Made by a program: the position numbers and the translations under genes
Shown: piece by piece, positions 1 to 49,187 of the stretch
How the letters are laid out: each line of letters starts with the position of its first letter
Numbering within the stretch: position 1 is the first letter of the stretch
Notes under the pieces: generated by a model
Seen by the model: only the letters and a program-made list of their open reading frames with translations
What the model was told of the DNA's origin: nothing
The model's database searches: none
DNA from: Candidatus Nomurabacteria bacterium
GTDB lineage: Bacteria > Patescibacteriota > Minisyncoccia > Phycocordibacterales > SBAW01
DNA: 64,000 bases
Direction: 5' to 3'
NCBI GenBank assembly: GCA_943356495.1
Contig: CALRFF010000001.1
Span: 193,012-257,011 of the forward strand

Positions 1-1
1 G

Positions 2-1738
2 ATGCGCGACATACCGGAGCATACGCCCATGCTCAACGGCGACGAAAAACCTATCCCCCCGCTTGAGCCGGGCAACATACGCATTATCCCGCTTGGCGGC
101 GTCGAGGAAATCGGCCGCAATATGACCATGATCGAGTTTGGCGACGATATTATTATCGTCGACTGCGGGTTCCAGTTCCGCGAGGATGACACCCCGGGCA
201 TCGACTATATTTTGCCCAACACCAAGTACCTCGAGGAACGTCGTGAGAAGATACGCGGACTGTTTATCACCCACGGCCACCTCGACCACATCGGTGCTAT
301 CCCGTACGTTATCGACCGGATCGGCTACCCGCCGGTCTACACACGCGGCCTCACCGCGGTTATGATCCGCAAGCGCCAAGAGGAGTTTCCTAACCTCAAG
401 CCGCTCGACATCCACGAGGTAGAAAAGGATGACACCGTTAAGGCGGGCAACATCCGCGTACGCTTCTTTTCCGTGTACCACACTATCCCCGACTCGATGG
501 GTATTGTTATCGAAACGCCCTACGGCGACTTGGTGTTTACCGGCGACCTGCGCCTCGACCACGAAGACGGCGTACCGTCCGAAACCGAAGAAAAAGAATT
601 TTCGTGGTTTGCCGACCGCAAAGTGCTGTTTTTGGCGGCCGACTCGACTAACGTCGAGCGTCCGGGCTTTTCGCTCCCTGAGCGCGTGGTCAAAAAGAAT
701 CTCGACGAAATTATCGCCACCACACCGGGGCGGCTTATTATCGGCACCTTTTCCTCGCAGCTCGAGCGCTTGATGCGCATGATAGAGCAGGCCGAGCGCG
801 TGGGGCGTAAAATCCTTGTCGAGGGCCGCTCGATGAAGGTCAACATCGAGATCGTTAAACATTTGGGGATGCTCAAGGTAAGCGAAAAAACGTTTATCGA
901 CGCCGCACAACTGGAGCACCTGCCCGACAACAAAGTGATGGTGCTCGCAACGGGTGCGCAAGGCGACGAGTTTGCCGCGCTTATGCGCGTCGCCATGAAG
1001 ACACATAAAAACGTAAAGATAAAAAAGGGCGACACGGTCGTGCTGTCCTCCTCGGTCATTCCGGGCAACGAGCGCAGTGTGCAAAAACTTAAAGACAACC
1101 TCTCGCGTCAAGGCGCAAAGCTTATCCATCGCGACACTATGGACGTCCATGCCTCGGGCCACGCCAACCGCGACGAGACGTTTTGGATCCACCAAAAAAT
1201 CAACCCGCGGTTCTTTATGCCGCTCCACGGCTATCACTACATGTTGCGCGTGCACGCCGACATCGCCAAAGCCTGCGGCCGCAGCGAAGACGAGATTGTT
1301 ATCCCCGACAACGGCACCATTATCGAAATTGTTGACGAAGGCCAGCGCATTATCCGTCGTAAAGAAAGTGCGCCCAACTCCTTGCGTTTGGTAGACGGCT
1401 TCTCTATCGGCGACATCCAAGAGGTGGTTATCCGCGACCGCACCGTACTCTCGGCCGAAGGTATGTTTGTCATCATCGCCACCGTCAACCCGCGCACCGG
1501 CAAACTGCGCAAGTCACCCGACATTATCTCCCGCGGCTTTGTATACCTGCGCGAAAATCAGGAGTTGCTCCAGCAAGCGCGCATCATCGTTAAAAAGACC
1601 ATCGAGGACAGCGCTAAGGGGCAAAATCCGGTCAACTTCGACTTTGTTAAAAACAACGTCACCGACGCAGTGGCCCGATTCCTCTTCGAAAAGACAAACA
1701 AACGCCCGATTGTCATACCTGTAGTCTTGGGCGTGTAA
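2..1738 (+). CDS. rnj: Ribonuclease J (metallo-beta-lactamase / beta-CASP RNase)
   Basis: 578-aa ORF. HxHxDH-type motif (FITHGHLDHIGAIP) and beta-CASP region are typical of RNase J1/J2. Confidence 0.85.
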   Translation: MRDIPEHTPMLNGDEKPIPPLEPGNIRIIPLGGVEEIGRNMTMIEFGDDIIIVDCGFQFREDDTPGIDYILPNTKYLEERREKIRGLFITHGHLDHIGAIPYVIDRIGYPPVYTRGLTAVMIRKRQEEFPNLKPLDIHEVEKDDTVKAGNIRVRFFSVYHTIPDSMGIVIETPYGDLVFTGDLRLDHEDGVPSETEEKEFSWFADRKVLFLAADSTNVERPGFSLPERVVKKNLDEIIATTPGRLIIGTFSSQLERLMRMIEQAERVGRKILVEGRSMKVNIEIVKHLGMLKVSEKTFIDAAQLEHLPDNKVMVLATGAQGDEFAALMRVAMKTHKNVKIKKGDTVVLSSSVIPGNERSVQKLKDNLSRQGAKLIHRDTMDVHASGHANRDETFWIHQKINPRFFMPLHGYHYMLRVHADIAKACGRSEDEIVIPDNGTIIEIVDEGQRIIRRKESAPNSLRLVDGFSIGDIQEVVIRDRTVLSAEGMFVIIATVNPRTGKLRKSPDIISRGFVYLRENQELLQQARIIVKKTIEDSAKGQNPVNFDFVKNNVTDAVARFLFEKTNKRPIVIPVVLGV

Positions 1739-1814
1739 CTTGTGCGCAACACGCGTTGTTAAAACTAGCAGATGCGTTATAGTGGCGCGCAGATGTGCAT
1801 TAAGGGAGAAGGTA

Positions 1815-1985
1815 ATGACCGACCAAACGAAGCCTGACTACAGCCAATTTGACGAGAAAGATCCCGTCGACCGCGTGCTCTTCGATCGCATGCACCGCGG
1901 CCAAGCCAAGCGGCCGGACGCTATGCAACTGCAAAAGCTCCGCCTGATTTCCGACGGATCAGACCCTCAGCTTGCAGACGCCTGA
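1815..1985 (+). CDS. Small hypothetical protein (56 aa)
   Basis: ATG preceded by a strong Shine-Dalgarno sequence (AAGGGAGAAGG). Its 3' end overlaps the convergent glycosylase gene by about 65 nt. No recognisable domain. Confidence 0.35.
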   Translation: MTDQTKPDYSQFDEKDPVDRVLFDRMHRGQAKRPDAMQLQKLRLISDGSDPQLADA

Positions 1986-2709
1986 GCTCGCGCTCTACCT
2001 CTCCCTTTGTTCTTGGGGAGAGGTTTTTTATTAGCCCCAAAAGCGTTGCGGGCTTTTTGAGCAGCTCGCGCAGTATGGCGCCGCGCAGCTGGCGCGCCGA
2101 ACCCTCAAACTTGGATTGCTTGGTGTAATGCTTGCTTTGCTTGTTTAGTTGTATCCCCTGCTTTTTTAAGTACGAGCCGTAGTCCATCAACGCCGCATAA
2201 AACTCCCGCGGCTCCATTTTACTTTTTTTGAGCGCCGCTTCCACCATCGGCAGTACTTCCTGATCAGAAAGACTACAATAATCGCTAGTCTTTTTCATGT
2301 GGTGAAAGAAGACGGTGCGGATATTTGTCTCGACAAAAACCTCCGGTTTGTTAAACGCAAAGGCGGCTACGGCGCGCGCCGTGTAGTGCCCCACGCCGGG
2401 CAAGTCTTCCAAGTCGGCGGGCCAGCCGTGTGTCGCTATCACTTTTGCCGCCTCGTGCAAAAATTTGGCGCGGCGGTTGTAGCCTAAGCCCTGCCACGCT
2501 TTGAGCACACGGTTAAGCGGCGCTTTGGCGAGCGCCGCGGGCGTCGGGAACATTTTGATAAACCGGTTATAAAACGGCACCACCCGCTCGACCTGCGTCT
2601 GTTGGAGCATCAACTCGGAGACGAGTATTTTGTACGGGTCGCGTGTGTTGCGCCACAGCAAATGAGCGCGGCCCTCTTTTTTATAAAAAGCTTTAAGCTC
2701 TCGGAGCAT
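1921..2709 (-). CDS. MutY-family HhH-GPD DNA glycosylase-like protein with C-terminal winged-helix, apparently lacking the 4Fe-4S cysteine cluster
   Basis: SELMLQQTQVERVVPFYNRF...LPGVGHYTARAV matches the MutY/Nth HhH-GPD signature. Only one Cys follows the HhH motif, so the usual Fe-S loop is absent. Confidence 0.7.
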   Translation of the reverse strand: MLRELKAFYKKEGRAHLLWRNTRDPYKILVSELMLQQTQVERVVPFYNRFIKMFPTPAALAKAPLNRVLKAWQGLGYNRRAKFLHEAAKVIATHGWPADLEDLPGVGHYTARAVAAFAFNKPEVFVETNIRTVFFHHMKKTSDYCSLSDQEVLPMVEAALKKSKMEPREFYAALMDYGSYLKKQGIQLNKQSKHYTKQSKFEGSARQLRGAILRELLKKPATLLGLIKNLSPRTKGEVERELRRLQAEGLIRRKSGGAFAVA

Positions 2710-2767
2710 GTGGGCATGATATCAAAAATCCCCGCCGAAGCGGGGATTTTTGCAGAGAGCCTGAGCT

Positions 2768-3019
2768 TTAAGCTTTCGGGCGAGCCTCCGAGACCGTGAG
2801 CATGCGGCCGCCGAACTCCTTGCCATTCCACATGGCAATTGCGTTCTGAATGCCGGCATCATCGGTCATCTCTACGAAGCCGAAGCCACGGGAGCGACCG
2901 GTCTCGCGATCAGTGACGACCGAAGCCGAGGTGACCTCGCCAGCTTTGGCAAAGGCATCGCGGAGCTCGTCACCCGTCGTGCGGTACGGAAGACCGCCGA
3001 CAAAGAGTTTGAGTGCCAT
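2768..3019 (-). CDS. RRM-type RNA-binding protein
   Basis: RNP1/RNP2 motifs present (KLFVGGLPY; RGFGFVEM). 83 aa. Confidence 0.8.
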   Translation of the reverse strand: MALKLFVGGLPYRTTGDELRDAFAKAGEVTSASVVTDRETGRSRGFGFVEMTDDAGIQNAIAMWNGKEFGGRMLTVSEARPKA

Positions 3020-3117
3020 AATTACGAGAAAGTTGTTACTACGTCCTTCGTAAGGCGACCACTCCTACCGCCAGACGGCACAAGGAGAACTTACTACTGA
3101 ACGAAAATACTCTAGCA

Positions 3118-3759
3118 CTAGTACGCAGGCTCTGCAACCACCACCAAGCGCTGGTCAAACTGATGTTCCGAGGTAACCCACTCCCCCGCGCAAGTAATAA
3201 GCACAAGCTGCGAAGGGCCTGTTTTGGCAAAAATTTGTTCGACCGGAGCGGCGTTGGTGGCATACGATTGGCTTGTAGCCACACGATATACCAGCGTTTT
3301 ACCGTTTTGGTCGGCGACCGTTATATAGTCGCCCTTTTTAAGTTTAGAAAGATGCTGGAAGACCCCCGCAGTCGTGAGCGCGTTGTCCACATGACCGGCA
3401 AACACAGCGTGCCCGGCGGCGCCGGGCTTAGACCCGAGCCCATACCACGCCACATTGCTAAAACCGGTCGGGGTACCCATGGTGCCGTCGGCTTTTTGGC
3501 CCACGTGCTCAACCGGCGCATCAACACTGATTGCCGGTATGCGCAAACGCGCGGGCACCAACACCGAGCTGGTAGCCACGGTGCCGAGCACCGACGGATC
3601 AATAATACTGATAGCGGGGCCAAAGGCCGTAACCGCGGCCGAGTCACCGAGCGTGGCGTGCGCCAAACGGGTTGTAACATCGGCCAAGCCGACGACTACC
3701 ACCGCCACACCGACGCAGGCAAGCGCAAAGCGCACGCGCGTCTCGCGGGTGTACGACAT
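3118..3759 (-). CDS. Sortase family transpeptidase
   Basis: LITC active-site cysteine motif (TLXTC type), conserved His, and an N-terminal membrane anchor. Start chosen at the internal Met so it does not overlap the upstream substrate gene. Confidence 0.75.
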   Translation of the reverse strand: MSYTRETRVRFALACVGVAVVVVGLADVTTRLAHATLGDSAAVTAFGPAISIIDPSVLGTVATSSVLVPARLRIPAISVDAPVEHVGQKADGTMGTPTGFSNVAWYGLGSKPGAAGHAVFAGHVDNALTTAGVFQHLSKLKKGDYITVADQNGKTLVYRVATSQSYATNAAPVEQIFAKTGPSQLVLITCAGEWVTSEHQFDQRLVVVAEPAY

Positions 3760-3775
3760 CAGAAGGATGCCTGAT

Positions 3776-4654
3776 TTAGCGGGAGAGAGCAGTAACGGTT
3801 TTTCGGACATACGGGCTAAGCATAAGGCCGGCGGTAATAAGAAGCACGGTCGCAAACGCTATGCCGGTCGAGATGTCCTTGGGGCCAAAGCCGGTAGACG
3901 GCAAGCGCGGGTAAACGACCGAGGTGTAGGAAGGCTGAGTATTGTAGGCGCCGTATGCGTAGCCGGTGTAGCCCGGAGTCGTGTACGCCGGAGGATTGAT
4001 GGGATTGACCGGCGCGTAGTTGGTGTTGACGGTTATGACGCACGATGCGGTTTGCGATGCGTTAGTAACCGTAACCGTGTGTACGCCGCTGGCCTGAAAC
4101 GCGGTGGTGAGTGTCGGACCGACGTTGGGGTAGTTTTGGTAGGCGGTTGCCCAATTGTACGTACCACCGGCACCGCCGATGGCGTTAAAGCTTGCCTGCT
4201 GGCCCAAGCCCACAGTCGGAGTAAGGGTCTGGCACGTCAACGGCTGGTAGCTCTGATACGGAAACAAAGTCGGGTACGGATTGTAGCTGCCGTAAGACGG
4301 CGTCATCGTGATAACGCAGGTCTGCGACTGGTTAGCAAGCATGGTGCTGTTGCAGCCGACCGAGTAGGACGGTATAAAACCCGGCACCGTGTTGGTAACG
4401 GTAACGTTGTAGACGCCCGGGTTGAGCGTTACGGCCGTGCCGCTCTGCGAGCCGGGAAAATTGTTAAGGCTCGGAGAAACGCCGGAGACAGCAACCGTAA
4501 AGTTACTCGGCGTGTACTGCTGATAATTGACGCCGTTTTGGGTCAATACCTGTACGTATACGGTAAGGAGACCGTTAGAAGCGGTCTGGGCAAAGGCAAC
4601 GTACGGGATAAGGACACCGAGTGCTACCGCGAAAGAAATAACAAACTTCTTCAT
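3776..4654 (-). CDS. LPXTG-anchored surface protein (sortase substrate) with two internal repeat domains
   Basis: N-terminal signal peptide. C-terminal LPSTG motif followed by a hydrophobic segment and a basic tail (RKT). Two repeated domains of about 90 aa. Lies immediately upstream of the sortase. Confidence 0.8.
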   Translation of the reverse strand: MKKFVISFAVALGVLIPYVAFAQTASNGLLTVYVQVLTQNGVNYQQYTPSNFTVAVSGVSPSLNNFPGSQSGTAVTLNPGVYNVTVTNTVPGFIPSYSVGCNSTMLANQSQTCVITMTPSYGSYNPYPTLFPYQSYQPLTCQTLTPTVGLGQQASFNAIGGAGGTYNWATAYQNYPNVGPTLTTAFQASGVHTVTVTNASQTASCVITVNTNYAPVNPINPPAYTTPGYTGYAYGAYNTQPSYTSVVYPRLPSTGFGPKDISTGIAFATVLLITAGLMLSPYVRKTVTALSR

Positions 4655-4738
4655 AAAATGGCTTTAAATAAGGCTTTATAACTGATTAATACGACCCCCT
4701 TTCGTTACTCTGGGGCCATCGTACAACAATTTTGTCAA

Positions 4739-5545
4739 CTATGCAAGGAGGACGGATTGCACTGATACTTCCTTATGAGGCTCAGGTTCTGCATGAGGCA
4801 CAAACGTAGTAACGGCAAACATCACCAACATTCCTGCAAAAAACCACAGCAGGTGTAAAGCATAATGTCTTGGGTTCTTTGCGTCCCTTATAGAATGAGG
4901 AATAAGGTCATGAAGCAGCACTACCAAAATGCCGCCTGCCGCTATGCCGAGCAACGGACCCTCAAGCATTTCAAACGCACCAAGTAAAAAATATCCGCCG
5001 ACCGCACCTATGAGTATCGTAGAGGACACTAGGAAGTTGACCCCGAGCGCTTTTTTTATCGAATAGCCCGCATCACGCAGCACAAAAAATTCTGATATTT
5101 CCTGCAGAGCCTCATGCACAAAAATACTAATACCCGCCGTAGCTGCCAATGCCGGTGACACCGCGTACGAAGCCGCAAGGAAAATACCGTCAGCCGCATT
5201 ATGAATACCGTCGGTTAAGAGCATGCGGCGGGCGTCAAGAGGTTGGTGATGCTCACCTTCCTCGTGTGCATGCACGTGCACGTGCGAACTGGGCAATATT
5301 TTAAATATAAGCCAAATGCCGACAGCCCCGACAAGAAGCCATGGTAACCCGTAGGCAAGTCCGCCCGCATGCTCCACCGCCTCAGTAGCAAGGCCGTATA
5401 AAAAAACAAGGAATACCCCCGAGCTAAAGCTCACCAGGTAGTCCAATTTTTTTTCAATAAACGATCCTACCCTGTTCCATACTGTAAACACCCCTACCAA
5501 AGAAGCGCACATGATAAGTAACGAAAGACCGAGAAGTTCTATCAT
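4739..5545 (-). CDS. zupT: ZIP family zinc transporter (ZupT-like)
   Basis: Multi-pass membrane protein with a His-rich loop (HVHVHAHEEGEHH) and ZIP-like HNxxDG / HE motifs. Confidence 0.6.
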   Translation of the reverse strand: MIELLGLSLLIMCASLVGVFTVWNRVGSFIEKKLDYLVSFSSGVFLVFLYGLATEAVEHAGGLAYGLPWLLVGAVGIWLIFKILPSSHVHVHAHEEGEHHQPLDARRMLLTDGIHNAADGIFLAASYAVSPALAATAGISIFVHEALQEISEFFVLRDAGYSIKKALGVNFLVSSTILIGAVGGYFLLGAFEMLEGPLLGIAAGGILVVLLHDLIPHSIRDAKNPRHYALHLLWFFAGMLVMFAVTTFVPHAEPEPHKEVSVQSVLLA

Positions 5546-5549
5546 AAAG

Positions 5550-5852
5550 TTAGCAGGCGCGGCACAACTGATTAAAACCGCACTCGGTGCAGGTCATATG
5601 GTGATGGTGCGGACGACCCGCATATTCGTAATAGGCCACTCTGCCTTTGTTCCCCTGCCGCACCAAACCGGCTGCCGCAAGCGCACGCAGAGTGCGGTAC
5701 AACGTTACCGTATTACTGCGCACCGATGGCTGTAGTTGAGCGACCGACAGCGGCCGGCGGGATTTCTCGAGCGCAGCAAGAAGCGCCAAACGCCCGGGCG
5801 TCGCCCGGGAACCTGCCGCGCGCAGCTCTTCTTTACAGTCATGCTTTTGCAT
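5550..5852 (-). CDS. zur: Fur family transcriptional regulator (probable Zur)
   Basis: Fur-like winged-helix fold, HHHH and CxxC...CxxC metal sites. Start set at the internal Met (MQKHDC). Adjacent to the ZIP transporter. Confidence 0.6.
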   Translation of the reverse strand: MQKHDCKEELRAAGSRATPGRLALLAALEKSRRPLSVAQLQPSVRSNTVTLYRTLRALAAAGLVRQGNKGRVAYYEYAGRPHHHHMTCTECGFNQLCRAC

Positions 5853-11354: not shown

Positions 11355-12014
11355 CTATTGCAAGGTAATTCCGGTAATCACGACCGGCGTAAGGGGGCGG
11401 TCTGAGCCGTCTGTAGGCACATTGTTGATAGCCATAACGACATCAAGACCGGTTGTAACCTTGCCGAAGACATTGTATTTGCCGTCCAAAAACGCGTTGT
11501 CTGCCGCATTGATAAAGAACTGGCTCCCGTTGGTGTCGGGGCCCGAGTTTGCCATCGACACCACCCCCACCCCGTTGTGGGCGATAACATTTTCGTTAGC
11601 AAATTTGTAGCCCGGCCCGCCGGTGCCCCAGCGCGCCGCCTGCGAGTCGTCGGTGGTTAGCGGGTCACCGCCCTGATTCATAAATCCTTTGATAACGCGA
11701 TGGAACTTGGTGTTGTCGTAAAAGCCCGCCTTAGCAAGCTTAATAAAGTTGGTGGTTGTTTTGGGTGCGGCGTCGGCAAAAAACTCTATTACGATGTCGC
11801 CCTTGCTGGTGTGGAGTGTCGCGTGCATGACTTTAGCGGGATTAGTGGTAGTGGTAGTGGTAGTGGCGGCAGCTGCGGTAGTAGTTGCCACCGTCGGTGT
11901 CGAGGTGGCGTACAGATCGGCGCTTGGGGCGGCCGATTGGCGAGGAGAGATAGCCCAATACCCCGCACCAAGCAACACCGCACCCGCGGCAATAGCAATA
12001 TATACCTTACTCAT
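11355..12014 (-). CDS. Cyclophilin-type peptidyl-prolyl cis-trans isomerase, membrane-anchored
   Basis: Cyclophilin signature (HRVIKGFMNQGGDP...FFIN) after an N-terminal TM segment and a Thr-rich linker. Confidence 0.85.
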   Translation of the reverse strand: MSKVYIAIAAGAVLLGAGYWAISPRQSAAPSADLYATSTPTVATTTAAAATTTTTTTNPAKVMHATLHTSKGDIVIEFFADAAPKTTTNFIKLAKAGFYDNTKFHRVIKGFMNQGGDPLTTDDSQAARWGTGGPGYKFANENVIAHNGVGVVSMANSGPDTNGSQFFINAADNAFLDGKYNVFGKVTTGLDVVMAINNVPTDGSDRPLTPVVITGITLQ

Positions 12015-12023
12015 ACGGTTAGC

Positions 12024-12332
12024 TTAGTGATGTACGCGGTCGCTGTGCGCCGAAAAAAGTTGCTTCCAGTGCAGTTTGGCGACGAAGAAAAGATAAATAA
12101 TTTCCAGTATGCCCATAGTGTGCACCACCAGCAAAATAACAAACCACCAGTACTGCCCACGGCGCGCCGCATGCCATAACGCCAAACCTTTCCACACCAG
12201 CGCCCACGCTACAACCAAAATAATAAACGGAGCGGCTATAGCAAGCGCCGCAAGCATCCACGGATGCTGCATCCATGGCTCTACCGCCCCCGGACCCCAA
12301 CCCCCGTACATACTCCAGTCTTGGTTATACAT
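12024..12332 (-). CDS. Small membrane protein (hypothetical)
   Basis: Two predicted TM helices, Trp-rich. No known domain. Confidence 0.4.
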   Translation of the reverse strand: MYNQDWSMYGGWGPGAVEPWMQHPWMLAALAIAAPFIILVVAWALVWKGLALWHAARRGQYWWFVILLVVHTMGILEIIYLFFVAKLHWKQLFSAHSDRVHH

Positions 12333-12350
12333 ATACCGTAAGTATACCTC

Positions 12351-12728
12351 TTAGGCGGAGTGCTGCTCGGCAGCCTCGGCATCGGCCTTGGTTTTGTGTA
12401 CCGTGCCGTCTTTGTGATTGGGCGGCGCGTACAGGGTATACAGCTTCATCGGGGCGTCGGCGCCATTGATAATGTTGTGCATAACGCCGGCCGGTACCAC
12501 CACCGCAAAACCGGCGGTAATAGCGTGCTCCACGCCGTCAAGCACCGCCGTGCCGCTCCCCGCCTCGACGCGGATAAACTGGTCGAGCTGGTGCACCTCT
12601 GCGCCGATATCCTCACCCGGCTGTAGCGCCATAACTACCACCTGCACACGCTCGTCGGTGTAGAGCACGCGGCGAAAAAACTCATTGGTAAGCGAGTCCT
12701 GCTCGATGTTGGTTACAAATCCTTTCAT
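12351..12728 (-). CDS. Cupin domain protein
   Basis: Double-stranded beta-helix (cupin) motifs (G.D.G.E.H....H). Start at MKGFVTN. Confidence 0.55.
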   Translation of the reverse strand: MKGFVTNIEQDSLTNEFFRRVLYTDERVQVVVMALQPGEDIGAEVHQLDQFIRVEAGSGTAVLDGVEHAITAGFAVVVPAGVMHNIINGADAPMKLYTLYAPPNHKDGTVHKTKADAEAAEQHSA

Positions 12729-12910
12729 CTGCCCAGTATAACAAATAAGTGTATGCACACCGCGTGCGTCAACTAACGATCCCTACCAACGACTTGGCGA
12801 AATTAAGCACGAGCGTAAGGATAGCAATAAAAAAGTTAATAATGAGCGTTAGTACGCCGAGCAGGAACGACAGAATGGTCTGCAATATAGCTTCTATGGC
12901 TTGCATGGTT

Positions 12911-13264
12911 TTAGAGTATCACCTGTTGCGGCGGCTGCTCAACCACCACAGGGCGGGCGGCCACCTCGTTTATTACCTTGCGGGTGGTGGCCAGCTCGTC
13001 CTCAACCTGCTTTTTTTGTTTAACCAACTGGTGGTAGTTGTACTCGTCGCGGATAAGCCCCGGCAAAAGCATAAGCAGGGTAATAACCACGCCGGCCATC
13101 AGCGCCAAAAAGAGCACTACTGCAAGCGAGCCCGATATATGCCACGTTAAAAACGTGACCGTAATAGGCGTAATATTTTGTAGGACAAAGATAACCGATA
13201 AAGCGCCCAGCAGTGCCCCCAGCAGCATAAAAAGTATCATGCACCCAGTATTGCTGAGTTGCAT
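12911..13264 (-). CDS. LapA-family (DUF1049) inner membrane protein
   Basis: Two TM helices followed by a coiled-coil tail, typical of DUF1049/LapA. Confidence 0.5.
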   Translation of the reverse strand: MQLSNTGCMILFMLLGALLGALSVIFVLQNITPITVTFLTWHISGSLAVVLFLALMAGVVITLLMLLPGLIRDEYNYHQLVKQKKQVEDELATTRKVINEVAARPVVVEQPPQQVIL

Positions 13265-13295
13265 GAAGTTTAGATGTACTGCTCAGAAACACCGC

Positions 13296-13330
13296 CTCTA
13301 TTGCAGTGTTTTGCAAAACACTAGCATAGA
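13296..13330. promoter_or_regulatory. 35-bp promoter/operator module, copy 1 (contains 18-bp perfect palindrome AGTGTTTTGCAAAACACT)
   Basis: Identical to the copy at 13595-13629. Lies 32 nt upstream of the start of the DUF1049 gene. Also overlaps the last codons of arsR. Confidence 0.5.
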
Positions 13331-13585
13331 CTCGGCGCGGGGCGTGAGTTTGTGGCGGACCGCCGGACCTTCGTTGCGCTTGAGCAGTAAACCGGCGGCG
13401 GCCAGCTTGCGCACGTGGTCGGAAGCGTTTTCATACCCCATCTTCAACCGTTCGGATATATCAAGCACCGACAGCTCCGGCTGGCGGTGCAGCAGATCGA
13501 GGATCTGCAGGCGGCGGTGGCTCGCGACGCCTTTGATAATCCGTTCGAGGCGGCGGTAGTCCCCCGTACTTAGTGGGTTCGGCAT
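13298..13585 (-). CDS. ArsR/SmtB family transcriptional regulator
   Basis: Winged HTH (LQILDLLHRQPELSVLDISERL...). 95 aa. Confidence 0.75.
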   Translation of the reverse strand: MPNPLSTGDYRRLERIIKGVASHRRLQILDLLHRQPELSVLDISERLKMGYENASDHVRKLAAAGLLLKRNEGPAVRHKLTPRAESMLVFCKTLQ

Positions 13586-13594
13586 ATAGCATTA

Positions 13595-13629
13595 CTCTAT
13601 TGCAGTGTTTTGCAAAACACTAGCATAGA
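13595..13629. promoter_or_regulatory. 35-bp promoter/operator module, copy 2 (same 18-bp palindrome)
   Basis: Exact repeat of 13296-13330. Ends 10 nt upstream of the arsR start codon, so this is the likely autoregulatory operator. Confidence 0.5.
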
Positions 13630-13836
13630 GCTGGGGATAAAACAGGGAGGGATAGAAAAAGCGGGTGGAGTGGGGCGCGTGCCTGCGGTACTCCGCCGGA
13701 CACGCGCCTTAGGAGATAGGATTGCGGGGTGGAGGCGTTGGGGGGGTTAGCCGGAGACCTCGACGCTAAAGCCGCCGTAGGACATACGCTTAGGATCCAT
13801 CGGCATGTCGGCGTTGAGCCAAAAACCTGAGATACC

Positions 13837-13862
13837 CCGCGCGCTGCAAAGCGCGCGGTTTT
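13837..13862 (+). terminator. GC hairpin plus T-run (CCGCGCGCT-GCAA-AGCGCGCGG TTTT), copy 1
   Basis: Same hairpin sequence recurs at 14602-14625. No plus-strand ORF of 60 aa or more lies upstream. Confidence 0.35.
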
Positions 13863-13936
13863 CATGACCTAGCGAAGCGAGCAAACAAAAGCTTGCTTTT
13901 GATTTGTCGCGAGCGACGGGCCTATCAGCAGAGCCG

Positions 13937-14158
13937 TTATTGGTCGACTGAAAAGATTTTAGAGGGGCTGCGGTGGCCCGAAATAAGCCGCACCTTGGCC
14001 GCCGGCAGCGCAAAGTGCCGCGCCACCAGCTCGAGCACGCGGCGGTTGGCCAAGTTTTGTTTGGCGGGCTGTTTGACCACTATCTTTAGCCGGTCGTTAG
14101 CAAGCAACTCTACCTTTTCTTCCTTTGCGCCGGCGAGTACCCGTACACTGATATACAT
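13937..14158 (-). CDS. DUF167 (YggU-like) protein
   Basis: 73 aa. Conserved KxG...RL pattern of the YggU family. Confidence 0.55.
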   Translation of the reverse strand: MYISVRVLAGAKEEKVELLANDRLKIVVKQPAKQNLANRRVLELVARHFALPAAKVRLISGHRSPSKIFSVDQ

Positions 14159-14214
14159 ATATCAACGCTAGCAAATCTAAAGAAATTAGCTATACTCGCC
14201 GATAGAGGGCACGC

Positions 14215-14598
14215 ATGGGGTATGTCATGAGACACGTAGTAGCACTGGTTGTTGCTGCTTGCCTGTGGGCCACCGAGGCTCAGGCGCAGGTTGAGCAGGA
14301 AGAGGTGCTGGGGTGTCGCTCGGCCGAGCAGCTGACCGAGCTTATCGACCTGTTGCGCGACGGCAAGGTGGCCGACTCGCACCGCCGCTTCCGACAACTG
14401 AGCCGCCGGCCCGACAGGCAGTGTACGGTAGCGCCGGTGGGGAAAGTGCTGAAGTTTGAGGTGGTTAAGACCTATCACTATCTGGTCTTGGCCAAGCGCT
14501 TTGTGAGCGACGCCGTGGTGCTGAGGGTCGAGTACCAAAACGGCATGGTCGTATATATTGTGCTCGACCGCGTAGTCGGTTATGCCACCGAGATTTAG
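14215..14598 (+). CDS. Secreted hypothetical protein
   Basis: Signal peptide (VVALVVAACLWATEAQAQ). Followed directly by a strong terminator. Confidence 0.5.
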   Translation: MGYVMRHVVALVVAACLWATEAQAQVEQEEVLGCRSAEQLTELIDLLRDGKVADSHRRFRQLSRRPDRQCTVAPVGKVLKFEVVKTYHYLVLAKRFVSDAVVLRVEYQNGMVVYIVLDRVVGYATEI

Positions 14599-40222: not shown

Positions 40223-41749
40223 ATGAAAGCCATCATCCTTGCCAGAGTTTCGACCGAAGAGCAGCGGGACGCGGGTAATTCGCTCCCTGCTCAGATCGAG
40301 CGCTTGCAGGACTACTGCAGACGGAAGGGGCTGGATGTAATAGAAAAGTTTAGCTTCGACGAGAGCGCCTACAAAACAAAGCGCGATGAGTTTGACGATA
40401 TTCTCAAAAGCATCGAGCAAAACAAAGACAAGGTAGCGGTATGCTTCGATAAGGTAGACCGCTTTTCGCGCAATGTGTTTGATAAACGTGTTGCAATGCT
40501 CTATGACCTCGCGATGGCAGACAAGATCGAGTTGCATTTCGCCTCAGATAACCTCGTCATCACCTCAAGCATATCTGCCGTTGAGAAGTTCCACTTTGGA
40601 ATCAACCTTGGGCTTGCAAAGTACTACTCGGACGCAATCAGTGACAACACACGCCGGGCCTTTGAAAATAAGCGGCGCAATGGCGAATGGACCGGCAAAG
40701 CGCCTATCGGATACAAAAACATTCAGGATGACAAAGGAAATAAGGACATCGTACTTGATGAGGAAAGGGCGCATCTCGTGCGCCGTATCTTTGAGCTGTA
40801 CGCGACCGGCAACTACTCCATCAAGAAAGTGCGGGACCAGATTACAAAAGACGGCCTCTTGAGCACTCAGGAAGGAAAGCCGCTCGCATTAAGCATGATC
40901 GAGTACATCCTTAAAAACCCCTTCTACCATGGTATGGCTCGATCTACACGCGAGACATACGAACACAAGTACTTGCCGCTCATCACAAAGCAACTTTTTG
41001 ACCAATGCCAGCAGGTTCTACAGAGCTGGGGCAAAAAGCAGTTTCAATACGCGGCCAAGCCGTACATCTTCCGCGGCTTGTTGCGCTGCGCTCGCTGTGG
41101 CTGCTCTATGAGCCCTGAAACGGCAAAGGGTAAGTATGTCTACTACGCCTGTTCTAACGGCAAAAAGGATATATGCGACACGAAGGTCTATGTGGCTGAG
41201 AAGGACCTCCTAAAGCCCATATACGCCATCCTGGGCGCTTTGGACAAGCTCCCGCAAGAGAAGATAGACGAGGTAGTCGAGGGGCTTAAAAAGTCGCACG
41301 AGTCAAAACAGGCGTACCACGGCAATGCTCTTACTGGGTTACGCAAAGAGTACGACATGCTCCAACAAAGGTTGGACAAAATGTACCTGGACCATCTCGA
41401 CGGGCGTATTACTCAGGATGCGTATGACAAATATCTGCAACAGTTTAAAGGACGACAGCAGAACATCAACCTACTCCTTAGCGAGCATACTGATGCAGAC
41501 GAGAGCTATATAATCGCGGCTACTACAGTGTTAAATCTGGCTAAGAGGGCTTTGAGCTTGTTTGAAAGTTCCGAAGTCTTGGAAAAGCGGGCGCTTTTGA
41601 ACTTTTTACTTCAGAACTCAACCGTGGACGGCAAAAAGCCTTGCTACGCCTTGCGTTCTCCTTTTGACGCTATACTCGCTTTCGCTAAACGACCAACTGG
41701 GCTGCCAGACTTGGATTCGAACCAAGATACACTGCTCCAGAGGCAGTAG
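40223..41749 (+). CDS. Large serine recombinase (integrase)
   Basis: N-terminal resolvase catalytic domain (ILARVSTEEQ...SLPAQ), recombinase and zinc-ribbon (CxxC...CxxC) domains. 3' end runs into tRNA-Gln. Confidence 0.85.
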   Translation: MKAIILARVSTEEQRDAGNSLPAQIERLQDYCRRKGLDVIEKFSFDESAYKTKRDEFDDILKSIEQNKDKVAVCFDKVDRFSRNVFDKRVAMLYDLAMADKIELHFASDNLVITSSISAVEKFHFGINLGLAKYYSDAISDNTRRAFENKRRNGEWTGKAPIGYKNIQDDKGNKDIVLDEERAHLVRRIFELYATGNYSIKKVRDQITKDGLLSTQEGKPLALSMIEYILKNPFYHGMARSTRETYEHKYLPLITKQLFDQCQQVLQSWGKKQFQYAAKPYIFRGLLRCARCGCSMSPETAKGKYVYYACSNGKKDICDTKVYVAEKDLLKPIYAILGALDKLPQEKIDEVVEGLKKSHESKQAYHGNALTGLRKEYDMLQQRLDKMYLDHLDGRITQDAYDKYLQQFKGRQQNINLLLSEHTDADESYIIAATTVLNLAKRALSLFESSEVLEKRALLNFLLQNSTVDGKKPCYALRSPFDAILAFAKRPTGLPDLDSNQDTLLQRQ

Positions 41750-41772
41750 TCCTACCATTAGACGATCTGGCA
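41702..41772 (-). tRNA. tRNA-Gln (anticodon CTG)
   Basis: Manually folded cloverleaf with 7-bp acceptor stem (U1-A72), anticodon loop CTCTGGA, T-loop TTCGAAT and discriminator G. Confidence 0.8.
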
Positions 41773-41795
41773 ATACACAGGAACGATATCAAACA

Positions 41796-46908: not shown

Positions 46909-46984
46909 TGGAGCCAGAGGTCGGGATTGAACCGACGACCCCTTCATTACGAATGAAGTGCTCTACCAACTGAGCTACTCTGGC
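46909..46984 (-). tRNA. tRNA-Thr (anticodon CGT), CCA encoded
   Basis: Manual cloverleaf fold. Anticodon loop TTCGTAA, T-loop TTCAATC. Confidence 0.8.
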
Positions 46985-46985
46985 G

Positions 46986-47058
46986 AGCCGAAGGCCGGAA
47001 TCGAACCGGCGACCTACTCCTTACCATGGAGTTGCTCTACCATCTGAGCTACTTCGGC
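46986..47058 (-). tRNA. tRNA-Thr (anticodon GGT)
   Basis: Manual cloverleaf fold. Anticodon loop ATGGTAA, T-loop TTCGATT. Confidence 0.75.
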
Positions 47059-47159
47059 GATGTAAGGAACAGTAGCGCATGTGCGTCTAATTTTCAATGG
47101 ATTTTCATGTACAACCGACTTTATGGGTTCTTCATCTATGGCGCGGTAAGGTGGTTGGT

Positions 47160-48404
47160 ATGACTCAGCCGCACCGCGCACTTTTGGCAACTCTTAGTGT
47201 CAGCGCATGGTGTGCATTTGTGCTAGCGGCATTTTTACTCCCCCGCGGAGAAGGCGTCGGACATGCCGCATTGGTGCTGGCGCTCCTTGGCGCCGCGGCG
47301 GCGGCTTTGGCGTACACCTATGCGCACTGGACGCCGGCCGCAGTACCCGAGCGCGACGAAACACTGCACCCTGAGATCGACACGGTAATTACCGACGGAC
47401 ATGTAGTGCCCGAAAGTATCCTCGCGGGGAGTGCGCCCTTGATTGCTGTGGTGCGCGAGGGCGAGCTACTCCACCCCGCCTTTGTCGATTCTTTAGCGCC
47501 GTACTTTACTGAGCGCTCGCTGGGGTTTGTACAAGCCGCCACCCGGTACGACGGCGTGGGGCGTGTGGCAGACGCATTCCGTATACAGCAAACACTGCTG
47601 CAGAACTTTGAACACGCTAAAAACTCACTTAACGCGGTAATGCTGCGCGGCAGCGGCGCGCTTATTGCGCGCGAGGCGCTCGAGCAGGCATACCGCCCCG
47701 GTATAGGGTTTGCCGAGTTGGGCTTGCGCATGCAGGCACTGGGCTATACGTCGCACGCTGAAACGCGCGCGCTAACACTTGCGTGGGCGCCGGAAACACT
47801 CGAGGAGTACTGGCCGCACCTGCTGCGCAACGCCCGACGCTCTTATACACTGCTGTACCCCGCACTGCGCACCAAAGGACTTTCCTTTGCGACACGCCTG
47901 CAGTATGCGGCTATACCAAGCGCATATACCGCGGCGGTTGCCGGCACACTGGCGCTGGTACTAACGCCGCCGGCACTGGTGCTGCGCGGCGTCGGGCCGG
48001 TCATACTGTCGGGTGCCGCACTGCCCGCACTTCTGGTGTTTGTAAGCGTATGTTTGATTGCCGCGCGTATGGTGGAAAAAATTGCCGCCGTGCCCGCAGC
48101 GCCGGTTGTGAGCTTAGTGGTGTCGGGCACTGCTCTTGCCGGGTATCGTCTTGGCTTGCTGTTCGGAAAAAAAATAAAAGTACGGGCGACCCCGCTGTTG
48201 CAAGCGGGGGCGGCGCAGTATGCAAACGCGCGGCGTGTGCTGCTTTCGGCAGCAAAAAAGCCCCAGAGGGGGCAATTTTTGCTCGCTGCGCGAGAGACGG
48301 GACTTGAACCCGCAACCTCCGCCGTGACAGGGCGGCGCTCTAACCAGTTGAGCTACTCCCGCGTGTCGGCGGAAGGACTTGCACCTTCGACCTTGGGTTT
48401 ATGA
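47160..48404 (+). CDS. Hypothetical Ala/Leu-rich membrane protein (possible degenerate glycosyltransferase-like)
   Basis: Long ORF with TM segments at both ends. Its 3' end overlaps two antisense tRNAs, so it may be spurious. Confidence 0.3.
   Translation: MTQPHRALLATLSVSAWCAFVLAAFLLPRGEGVGHAALVLALLGAAAAALAYTYAHWTPAAVPERDETLHPEIDTVITDGHVVPESILAGSAPLIAVVREGELLHPAFVDSLAPYFTERSLGFVQAATRYDGVGRVADAFRIQQTLLQNFEHAKNSLNAVMLRGSGALIAREALEQAYRPGIGFAELGLRMQALGYTSHAETRALTLAWAPETLEEYWPHLLRNARRSYTLLYPALRTKGLSFATRLQYAAIPSAYTAAVAGTLALVLTPPALVLRGVGPVILSGAALPALLVFVSVCLIAARMVEKIAAVPAAPVVSLVVSGTALAGYRLGLLFGKKIKVRATPLLQAGAAQYANARRVLLSAAKKPQRGQFLLAARETGLEPATSAVTGRRSNQLSYSRVSAEGLAPSTLGL
48290..48363 (-). tRNA. tRNA-Asp (anticodon GTC)
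   Basis: Manual cloverleaf fold. Anticodon loop CTGTCAC, discriminator G. Confidence 0.8.
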
Positions 48405-48438
48405 GTCCCATGCTCTAACTACCTGAGCTACGCCGACG
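48365..48438 (-). tRNA. tRNA-Met (anticodon CAT, elongator-type)
   Basis: Anticodon loop CTCATAA. 7-bp acceptor stem. One A-A mismatch closes the anticodon stem. Confidence 0.7.
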
Positions 48439-48457
48439 GTACGCAAAAAGTACCACG

Positions 48458-49066
48458 TTAGGCCCTATTTTTCAATTTTAGATATACGTGCGCGTACGCA
48501 ATGAGTGAGACCGGTATGGTAACCAGAAGCCCCACTGCAAGCGCCAATGCGCCGAGCAGGTTAATGACACCGAGTACCAAAAAGAACCACAGCAACTTCC
48601 ACTTGTGTCCGTGGGTAAGACGGCTGCTTTTGCGCAAACTTTCGGTAATGTGTGCGCCTTCGAGCACCGCAAAACGCGCCATGCTAAAGCGCAGCGCAAG
48701 ATATATGCCGGGGATAATAAGAGCAATAATACCGACAAATACCAACAGTCCCGCAACTACCGACGTGCAGAAGTACAACCATACCGTTTGCGCCTTGGGA
48801 ACGAGGTCGTGGTAGTGCGCCGGTTGGCTGTGCGCGAGTTTGAGTGCGATATGCATAAAGCCCGCACCAAGGATAACCCCGGCAACCGCAAGCGCAAACG
48901 ACGCAAGCACACCGAGTACCGTGCCTGCAAGCACTTTGTCGACGATAGCCGACGTTACCTGCAGCGCAAACAGTGTAAGTAGTACTTGGAACAGGAGCGC
49001 GCTGTGGTCGCGTGTTTTGTGCCACCCAAACCGGAGCGCTTCATGTATAGAGAAAGCGTGTGTCAT
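48458..49066 (-). CDS. Polytopic membrane protein (hypothetical)
   Basis: About six TM helices. Confidence 0.45.
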   Translation of the reverse strand: MTHAFSIHEALRFGWHKTRDHSALLFQVLLTLFALQVTSAIVDKVLAGTVLGVLASFALAVAGVILGAGFMHIALKLAHSQPAHYHDLVPKAQTVWLYFCTSVVAGLLVFVGIIALIIPGIYLALRFSMARFAVLEGAHITESLRKSSRLTHGHKWKLLWFFLVLGVINLLGALALAVGLLVTIPVSLIAYAHVYLKLKNRA

Positions 49067-49106
49067 GCTTGTATAGTATCACTTTTTCTGCTATTATGGT
49101 GTCAAT

Positions 49107-49178
49107 AGCGGGGTGGAGCAGTAGTAGCTCGCAAGGCTCATAACCTTGAGGTCGCGGGTGCAATTCCCGCCCCCGCAA
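49107..49178 (+). tRNA. tRNA-fMet-like initiator tRNA (anticodon CAT)
   Basis: Strong resemblance to bacterial tRNAfMet (GCGGGGTGGAGCAG...TAGCTCG...GGCTCATAACC...CCCCCGCAA) with an unpaired 1:72 position. 3' end is ACA, not an encoded CCA. Confidence 0.75.
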
Positions 49179-49187
49179 CACGTATAA

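Follow-up and report, generated by a model that had tools for sequence, protein, structure and literature searches.

In the 64-kb window analysed here (64,000 nucleotides (nt) of contig CALRFF010000001.1 of a Candidatus Nomurabacteria bacterium), a gene on the minus strand encodes a winged-helix protein of 95 amino acids (aa) of the ArsR/SmtB type, and it is flanked by two copies of the 35-nt direct repeat CTCTATTGCAGTGTTTTGCAAAACACTAGCATAGA. One copy lies just 5' of the start codon, while the other is written in the last codons of the gene. On the basis of a comparison with related loci, it is likely that this is an autorepressor gene bracketed by two of its own operators, one of which is contained in the codons for the C-terminal helix. 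The features of the locus are as follows.

13595..13629, minus strand: putative promoter-proximal operator (O-up; upstream repeat copy), with a 34-base-pair (bp) palindrome frame at 13596-13629 and the dyad between 13612 and 13613
13604..13621, no strand: palindrome core AGTGTTTTGCAAAACACT of the upstream copy, with the -35-like centre TTTGCA/TTGCAA
13594..13599, minus strand: candidate -10 hexamer TAGAGT, weak, 8 nt 5' of the ATG; the repeat covers its first five bases only
13298..13585, minus strand: gene for the ArsR/SmtB-type winged-helix repressor, 95 aa, with Pfam HTH_20 and HTH_5 matches and probably a leaderless mRNA
13296..13330, minus strand: putative intragenic operator (O-3'; coding repeat copy), comprising the last 10 residues SMLVFCKTLQ of helix a5 and the stop codon TAG (13298-13300)
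13305..13322, no strand: core of the palindrome in the coding copy, spanning (CT)A GTG TTT TGC AAA ACA CT(G)
12911..13264, minus strand: LapA_dom membrane-protein gene (Pfam LapA_dom, E = 6e-12); gene callers also start it at 13240
13630..13640, minus strand: TTATCCCCAGC box directly 5' of the palindrome, recurring in related loci with the ATG at +23 to +27 from the dyad

The window has exactly two occurrences of the repeat (13296-13330 and 13595-13629). No third copy was found there at up to three mismatches, nor in 100 shuffles. Each copy is an imperfect palindrome of ~34-36 bp in which 14 of 17 pairs are matched, and each contains the 18-bp perfect palindrome AGTGTTTTGCAAAACACT (13305-13322 and 13604-13621). 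The two copies are spaced by 299 bp, with a gap of 9 nt between the upstream copy and the ATG of the repressor gene (13585) and one of 31 nt between the coding copy and the ATG of the LapA-like gene (13264). This agrees with the initial annotation, in which an exact 35-bp duplication with an 18-bp perfect palindrome in each copy had been described, one copy 10 nt before arsR and the other about 32 nt before the LapA-like gene and coding for the last residues of ArsR; its positions are right to within 1 nt, and the coding part amounts to the last 10 codons and the stop. The search for further copies of the palindrome that had been proposed gave a divided answer: there are no more in the window at up to three mismatches, and there are many in related genomes.

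The two sites in related loci

Eighty homologous loci were drawn from 185,579 species genomes, which together with the window makes 81. In all 80 of them, L061 included, the gene ends in the same ~34-bp palindrome, which takes up the last ~10 codons and the stop codon and has TTTTG/CAAAA at its centre. Codon usage, tabulated for the 72 loci of equal length, sets this end apart from the remainder of the gene. Along the gene body synonymous usage is free, with 5-6 codons in use for invariant leucines, AAG in 40 and AAA in 32 loci at K59, and TTC in 36 and TTT in 31 at F10. The last 11 codons, by comparison, are frozen (TCT 43/46, CTA 70/72, TTT 72/72, TGC 71/72, AAA 72/72, AGA 27/27 and CAA 32/33). 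Since synonymous sites are frozen only there, selection acts on these codons at the nucleotide level.

Of the 81 loci, 79 have a second copy of the palindrome shortly before the start codon, at 283-340 nt on the upstream side of the coding copy, and TTTTGCAAAA is invariant in 74/74 upstream sites. The proposed consensus of the site, ~34 bp in length, is (T/C)(C/T)TAT-nnn-AGTGTTTTG/CAAAACACT-nnn-ATA(G/A)(A/G). Copies belonging to the same locus match at 17.99 of 24 variable positions, as compared with 15.07 +/- 0.25 in shuffled pairings (2000 shuffles, maximum 15.95). Furthermore, upstream copies tend to share the asymmetry of the coding copy in its own orientation (42 loci against 12), which hints at templating from the coding copy. 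Judged from these comparisons, the layout is no local duplication; it has been conserved, and has co-evolved, throughout a bacterial class. The 3' copy itself, being present in 80/80 homologous loci with frozen synonymous sites, is on the same grounds an ancient part of the coding sequence and not a recent duplicate.

The initial annotation had concluded that a whole promoter-operator was duplicated. In such a reading, a recent local event would have brought the repressor gene and the LapA-like gene each under an identical regulated promoter. Such an event would account for the identity of the two copies at 35/35 positions, which is rare in the family (identity over 34/34 is seen only in the window and in L033, the median being 28/34), and for the short distances of 9 and 31 nt to the two ATGs. 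It is contradicted by the occurrence of the 3' copy in 80/80 loci, where it encodes the invariant C-terminus, and by the downstream genes, which differ or are convergent in relatives. Neither does the repeat include a complete -10: it stops one base short of the candidate hexamer, which reads TAGAGt at the upstream copy and TAGAGg at the 3' copy. On the minus strand the repressor gene is followed by genes for LapA_dom, a 45-aa open reading frame (ORF), a cupin, DUF5652 and a cyclophilin (a peptidyl-prolyl isomerase), and in each of the last four a TAnnnT box stands 6-8 nt 5' of the ATG. Within this run, such a box is missing only from the LapA-like gene, at both of its candidate ATGs. A duplicated promoter is, in our judgement, extremely unlikely.

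Because it has no TAnnnT box of its own 4-9 nt before the ATG, the LapA-like gene is more likely, and indeed probable, to be co-transcribed with the repressor gene. The most economical reading of the sequence is a bicistronic repressor-LapA-like unit under the promoter operator. Co-regulation of the neighbour by ArsR, which had also been put forward, is plausible in that form, but not by way of a duplicated promoter.

The geometry of the promoter emerged only from comparing loci; a scan with the generic sigma-70 consensus gave no promoter in 12700-14300 of the window. When upstream sites are aligned on their dyads, ~35 loci show gTA(G/A/C)AAT at +18 to +23 and an in-frame ATG at +30; the count of loci with the ATG at +30 is 21. 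Other loci have an extended -10 (TGnTATAAT) at a slightly greater distance from the dyad, and there too it is 6-9 nt from the ATG. In 62/71 loci, the ATG is preceded by a TAnnnT box that ends 4-9 nt (mode 6) from it, as against 10.9% of all ATG triplets there. With the -10 box this close to the ATG, the geometry is that of leaderless mRNAs. The -35 region is provided by the centre of the palindrome (TTTGCA/TTGCAA), and the site covers the -35 and the spacer. As the upstream copy thus lies outside the transcript in most loci, its function must be exerted at the level of DNA. In the window, the ATG is at +27 from the dyad.

Two further observations concern these promoters. The box TATCCCCA(G/C) stands directly 5' of the palindrome only in loci with the ATG at +23 to +27 from the dyad (window 13630-13640, L001, L004, L052, L055, L072, L079 and L133), and it may be an upstream promoter element. 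Secondly, a -10-like box, often extended (TTTGATATACT or TGnTAnnnT), was seen 6-8 nt 5' of the ATG at nearly every start examined, namely those in 11355-13264 (minus strand) of the window and in L004, L011, L057, L060, L062 and L063. None of these starts has a Shine-Dalgarno sequence, so leaderless mRNAs seem to be the rule in these Paceibacteria.

A sister subfamily, found by means of a library clustered at 50% and a second homology search, provides the decisive evidence on the protein that binds the site. Its recognition helix reads N[FLV]KTAS[AE]H, as opposed to GYENASDH in the main family, and its C-terminus, LKFLRTLE followed by the stop, is invariant among its members. The 3' codons of the sister genes form a different palindrome, TTCTAAAGTTCTT/AAGAACTTTAGAA (GTTCTT/AAGAAC), and this palindrome is also found 5' of the start in L213, L214, L216, L217 and L220. 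From main to sister family, the promoter operator goes from TTTTGCAAAA to GTTCTTAAGAAC, the C-terminal peptide before the stop from VFCKTLQ to KFLRTLE, and the helix from GYENASDH to NFKTASEH. Because recognition helix, promoter site and C-terminal codons shift jointly, the encoded protein is read as the binder. In two sister loci, L218 and L219, the coding end has no palindrome; there is an upstream site, and a separate site is located 86 and 97 nt past the stop, respectively. From this arrangement in two loci, two-site bracketing of the gene appears to be kept even in the absence of a coding copy. Genomes carry 2-3 paralogues, and each paralogue has its own matching site variant.

Two findings, the overlap of the site with the promoter in ~80 loci and the joint variation of its core and the recognition helix, make an operator of the ArsR-like protein the best reading of the palindrome, and the repressor gene is almost certainly autoregulated. 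The suggestion that ArsR probably autoregulates is supported by the same two lines of comparison.

The encoded protein

According to the AlphaFold2 model (predicted local distance difference test 77) and to profile searches, the 95-aa product is a bona fide winged-helix protein of the ArsR/SmtB fold, with helices a1-a5 and a wing. Pfam gives 30.6 bits for HTH_20 (cut-off 27) and 27.1 bits for HTH_5 (cut-off 22), and a profile search of the PDB returned HlyU (5e-9), CadC (1e-8) and also CzrA. In the model, helices span residues 7-20, 23-34, 40-46, 51-63 and 82-94, with the wing at 67-80, and the best structural matches found with Foldseek are CadC and CzrA, at template-modelling (TM) scores of 0.78-0.82.

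The score for the NCBIfam metalloregulator model ArsR/SmtB NF033788, 49.9 bits, is below its cut-off of 55. No metal or metalloid site of the a3 CXC, a3N or a5 D-x-H-x10-H-x2-E/H type was found in the sequence and alignment of the protein: helix a3 is VLDISER, without cysteine, and helix a5 is PRAESMLVFCKTLQ, without histidine or aspartate ligands. The only cysteine, Cys91, corresponds to the TGC codon at the dyad. As the motif of a metal site is missing, a label such as arsenic or metal sensor is not justified, and 'ArsR' should be read here as the name of a fold and not of a function.

There are 845 detectable homologues, all of them from Patescibacteria where named, and the best 120 of the 845 are 72-100% identical to the protein. 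Together with the DUF5652 gene, the names of the homologues assign the organism to the Patescibacteria, of the Paceibacteria/Kaiserbacteria type. Identity amounts to 68-92% across orders. In an alignment of 21 homologues, L88, V89, F90, C91, K92 and L94 are invariant. These residues belong to the stretch in which the palindrome of the coding copy encodes helix a5, and a5 is the dimerisation helix of the ArsR/SmtB family.

Negative autoregulation and 12-2-12 operators are typical of the ArsR/SmtB family. The predicted system resembles the autorepressors CadC, CzrA, SmtB and HlyU in size (~95-120 aa), in the order a1-a2-a3-a4(recognition)-wing-a5, in the TM score of ~0.8 to CadC and CzrA, and in what appears to be a long imperfect palindrome (~26-34 bp) over its own promoter. 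It differs from them in having no a3 or a5 metal site and an NCBIfam score below cut-off, in its partner gene, which is variable and not a resistance gene, and in the second operator in its own last codons.

Another function for such a protein is conceivable. It could be chiefly a chromosome-organising, partition-adaptor or roadblock protein, comparable to AspA or to ParB with parS and acting at ~5-15 sites per genome, with autoregulation as a side effect. The high identity across orders, the long perfect palindromes, which are conserved over the class and often far from gene starts, and a weak similarity in sequence and fold to the centromere-binding ArsR-like AspA would all suit this role. 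The parB (spo0J) gene of Bacillus itself contains a parS site, and both there and at the AspA centromere site of pNOB8 a conserved perfect palindrome is recognised by the product of the containing or adjoining gene; AspA is, moreover, an ArsR-like winged-helix protein. However, no gene for a partner nucleoside triphosphatase, of the ParA type or any other, and none for a ParB-type partner is adjacent, and the neighbours vary. The promoter site has a precise repressor geometry at the gene's own promoter, and the classical repressors CadC and CzrA are the best structural matches. A primarily chromosome-organising function therefore seems very unlikely.

Possible roles of the 3' copy and of sites elsewhere

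A dimeric repressor of the ArsR/SmtB type would recognise the ~34-bp palindrome, and its binding at the -35 and spacer of its own leaderless promoter would shut off initiation and so bring about autorepression. The second operator would consist of the last ten codons, encoding helix a5, together with the stop, so that the gene is bracketed. For the 3' copy, an action in cis on its own transcription unit is most likely, and two mechanisms, alone or combined, could underlie it. As an auxiliary operator, it may help to keep the promoter site occupied, through cooperative binding or looping; as an elongation roadblock, it may limit the amount of full-length repressor mRNA and read-through into the next gene. 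In the window, where it lies exactly between two cistrons, it could gate read-through into the LapA-like gene. We infer binding, repression, looping or roadblock from the architecture of the locus, its conservation and the co-variation between subfamilies.

Alternatively, the 3' copy could mainly be an operator for the promoter of the downstream gene, a space-saving arrangement in a compact genome that has no role on the repressor gene. In several loci, a leaderless-type promoter and an ATG are indeed found within 20-55 nt of the dyad; in L015 and L077 the ATG is at +20 and TAGAAT in the arm of the palindrome would be the -10, and L004, L022, L037, L057, L062 and L063 are further cases. The next gene is co-directional in the five loci with real gene calls. 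The geometry is not fixed, however, since the distance from the dyad to the next start ranges from +12 to >250 nt with no preferred value. The neighbours vary among relatives (LapA_dom, MazG-like, acetyltransferase, small unknown proteins, RadC and others), and convergent orientation of the next gene has not led to loss of the copy, as seen in L044 (aspartyl/lysyl-tRNA synthetase), L046 and L213. In L007, L013 and L026 an extra, separate site is available for the downstream gene, and the window has no -10 box before the LapA-like gene. Varied neighbours, the lack of a fixed distance and the convergent cases indicate that the 3' copy does more than serve one particular downstream gene as its operator, and an exclusive role of this kind is unlikely.

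A second possibility is that the coding copy has been selected for the hairpin that its RNA forms at the mRNA 3' end, in the service of stabilisation, termination or control of translation, its identity with the promoter site being secondary. The 3' end folds into a hairpin of 15-17 bp (-24.2 kcal/mol, z = -2.6), sites remote from the repressor gene often lie after genes or between convergent ORFs, and the commonest arm mismatch is T/G. Yet the twin sequence upstream is in untranscribed promoter DNA, and the core shifts together with the recognition helix. Only 77/281 arm mismatches are wobble-compatible, and complementarity ends with the palindrome (-4.22 kcal/mol for the flanks, versus -4.20 for shuffled flank pairs). 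A T-run within 15 nt of the stop is present in only 5/80 loci, and the remote sites are flanked by TTTT...AAAA, the wrong polarity for a terminator. Selection for an RNA structure is quite improbable. The 3' copy was also considered as an intrinsic terminator and rejected: a terminator scan does not call it, T-runs are found in the same 5/80 loci and the stem is A+T-rich at its centre.

Several points weigh against an autorepressor gene bracketed by its own operators. All of the evidence is comparative and derives from sequence. The -10 of the window, TAGAGT, is poor and 8 nt from the ATG. The coding copy may fold as an RNA hairpin at the mRNA 3' end, at -24 kcal/mol. Looping has no positive support, given that the centre distances of 283-340 bp show no significant helical phasing (R = 0.17, p ~0.1), and tetramerisation is not known as a general property of ArsR-family dimers. 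Finally, most of the exact 18-mers found in metagenomes are orphans. A scan of metagenome contigs for the exact 18-mer gave at least 120 stretches, and 80 loci with 89 sites among the matches listed, to which all of the following figures on orphan sites also refer. For at least 48, a stretch of 400 nt around the site contains no repressor gene of this kind, only ~13 orphan sites have a leaderless-type start within 75 nt, and 12/41 lie between convergent ORFs. The ORF calls behind the last figure are crude, the LapA-like gene being missed by them, so orientation figures are rough.

With respect to their form, ~80/89 of the sites are extended to 34 bp and 41 are perfect palindromes. Orphan sites are strongly intergenic (70/81, compared with an ORF coverage of 72%). 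No functional theme was found among their neighbours, which include a tRNA-editing domain, an NAD kinase, an MFS transporter and PPDK-like and SocA proteins, and among their flanks, which read TTTT...AAAA, none is conserved between organisms. By a rough estimate, there are perhaps 5-15 sites per related genome. Together with the shared asymmetry of the copies and the composite units described below, such sites would be compatible with a wider function of the protein (roadblock, insulator or architectural factor), and also with occasional spread of sites by duplication of the end of the gene. As a finding that would speak against its reading, the initial annotation had named a repeat that is widespread as a generic element and unrelated to these genes. 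The first part holds, in that it occurs in many other places in related genomes; the second does not, because its link to the gene family is systematic.

Composite or tandem units with 2-3 palindromes spaced by 103-125 nt were noticed in L116 (5840-5985 and 7400-7545), L011 (2700-3000), L007 (2850-2990) and L054 (3300-3340). The inner part in L116 and L054 still translates into a repressor C-terminus (..RTKSILVFCKILE and KLTPRGESVLVFCKRLV, each followed by a stop), from which it follows that fragments of the 3' end of the gene get duplicated. A second motif, GGGGAAC(C/T)GGTTTTGTTTTTGC, adjoins palindromes in two unrelated contigs (L116 5900-5935 and 5985-6005; L030 ~1880-1950) and may be another site or a part of the repeat unit.

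These units bear on the idea, mentioned as an alternative in the initial annotation, that the repeats mark a small mobile cassette. The palindromes would then be ends or relics of a mobile element or of one resembling repetitive extragenic palindromic (REP) sequences or miniature inverted-repeat transposable elements (MITEs), the gene with its repeats would be a spreading cassette and the orphans its solo remnants. Direct repeats flanking a 300-bp gene, the 2-3 paralogues per genome, the composite repeats with gene 3'-end remnants in L116 and L054, the many orphan sites and the shared orientation of the asymmetry (42 loci against 12) can all be cited in its favour. The idea finds no support in other respects: there is no transposase or recombinase among the neighbours, only two copies exist in 64 kb, the 18-mer is absent from IMG/VR viral contigs and the flanks of orphan sites in different organisms show no relationship. 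Strain variants (L081 and L082, the latter equal to the window from ~13745 onwards) lose synteny ~160 nt upstream of the repressor ATG, away from the repeat, and the site variants are specific to paralogues, as expected of co-evolution between regulator and operator. We consider a mobile origin highly improbable. In L081 (positions 1-5840), the DUF167 region is replaced by a DUF1428 gene and a restriction-modification module, which consists of an NgoFVII-like endonuclease and a LexA-S24/DNA-methylase fusion.

Besides the bracketed autorepressor gene as such, a broader and more tentative proposal is possible. The operator would be self-encoded throughout the class, being the nucleotide sequence of the C-terminal helix and stop; a shift in specificity would have changed the recognition helix, the promoter operator and the C-terminal peptide; the gene would form a self-contained loop and/or roadblock unit; and the same protein may mark ~5-15 additional sites per genome that are not promoters. 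If so, part of the amino acid sequence of a transcription factor is dictated by its own DNA-binding specificity, the operator-bracketed gene is a minimal self-contained autoregulatory unit, and the extra sites may act as roadblocks or insulators in terminator-poor genomes.

Autorepression in the ArsR family and intragenic auxiliary operators as such are already known. A repressor site at the 3' end of the repressor's own gene is found in lac O3. According to one account, LacI bound to O3 at the 3' end of lacI roadblocks lacI transcription, and the product of the truncated lacI mRNA is SsrA-tagged and degraded, which is described with O1 and O3 both bound (PMC3711431, citing Abo et al. 2000). 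The same account mentions that operator-bound LacI tetramers can interact via DNA loops (PMC3711431). In contrast to the present protein, LacI is a tetramer of another family, and O3 is weak, degenerate and confined to one lineage. The site described here is a full-strength one, identical to the promoter site in the window; it covers the stop codon and has synonymous sites frozen across the class. C.Kpn2I is a small helix-turn-helix autoregulator with a site in its own ORF that acts as an elongation roadblock, a strategy that its authors suggest is possibly widespread (PMC6237814). Its site is at the 5' end of the ORF, by the divergent promoters of a restriction-modification system, and it belongs to another protein family, with no second, bracketing copy and no family-wide co-variation of site and codons shown.

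A full-text literature search returned no description of the family, of the motif or of a stop-proximal operator that co-evolves with a recognition helix, and no regulon literature for Paceibacteria-type Patescibacteria. We know of no genetics in this group. A testable pair of regulator and operator is offered for it, together with a promoter architecture (-10 6 nt before the ATG, leaderless). The locus is also a clean case of overlapping codes, with eleven codons and a stop under selection as protein and as DNA across a class, and the two subfamilies document a coordinated change of recognition helix, operator and C-terminal peptide. It implies a warning as well: invariant C-terminal residues, such as the sole cysteine, may be kept for reasons of DNA and not of protein. 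The compact design that is suggested, a repressor gene within its own operators, would extend the single-lineage examples of LacI-O3 and C.Kpn2I and might be copied as a minimal autoregulated cassette. The system is relevant to gene regulation, overlapping codes and the biology of Patescibacteria.

Neighbouring genes and other features of the window

Near the locus, the 45-aa hydrophobic ORF (MQAIEAILQTILSFLL...) occupies 12769-12906 on the minus strand, and a close relative (MQALDTILQTVLSFLL...) adjoins an orphan palindrome in L151, a different metagenome contig, at ~1440. The leaderless-type starts of the two ORFs suggest a small membrane protein that is probably genuine. A decayed tandem duplicate of the gene was considered for the upstream side of the repeat; the ORF listing of the window contains no long ORF in the frame of LVFCKTLQ-stop between 13630 and 13936. 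Rfam gave nothing at the locus, either for the whole window at the gathering threshold or for 13200-14000 at E <= 1.

A G+C-rich 9-bp hairpin followed by TTTT, terminator-like in appearance, is located at 13837-13858 on the plus strand. The repressor and DUF167 genes are separated there by 350 nt; no plus-strand gene ends at the hairpin, and it has no Rfam match. Further away in the window, five of the six tRNA genes are grouped in 46909-49179 (Thr-CGT, Thr-GGT, Asp, Met and Met) and the sixth, for Gln, is at 41698-41773; the group includes two adjacent tRNA pairs without a spacer.

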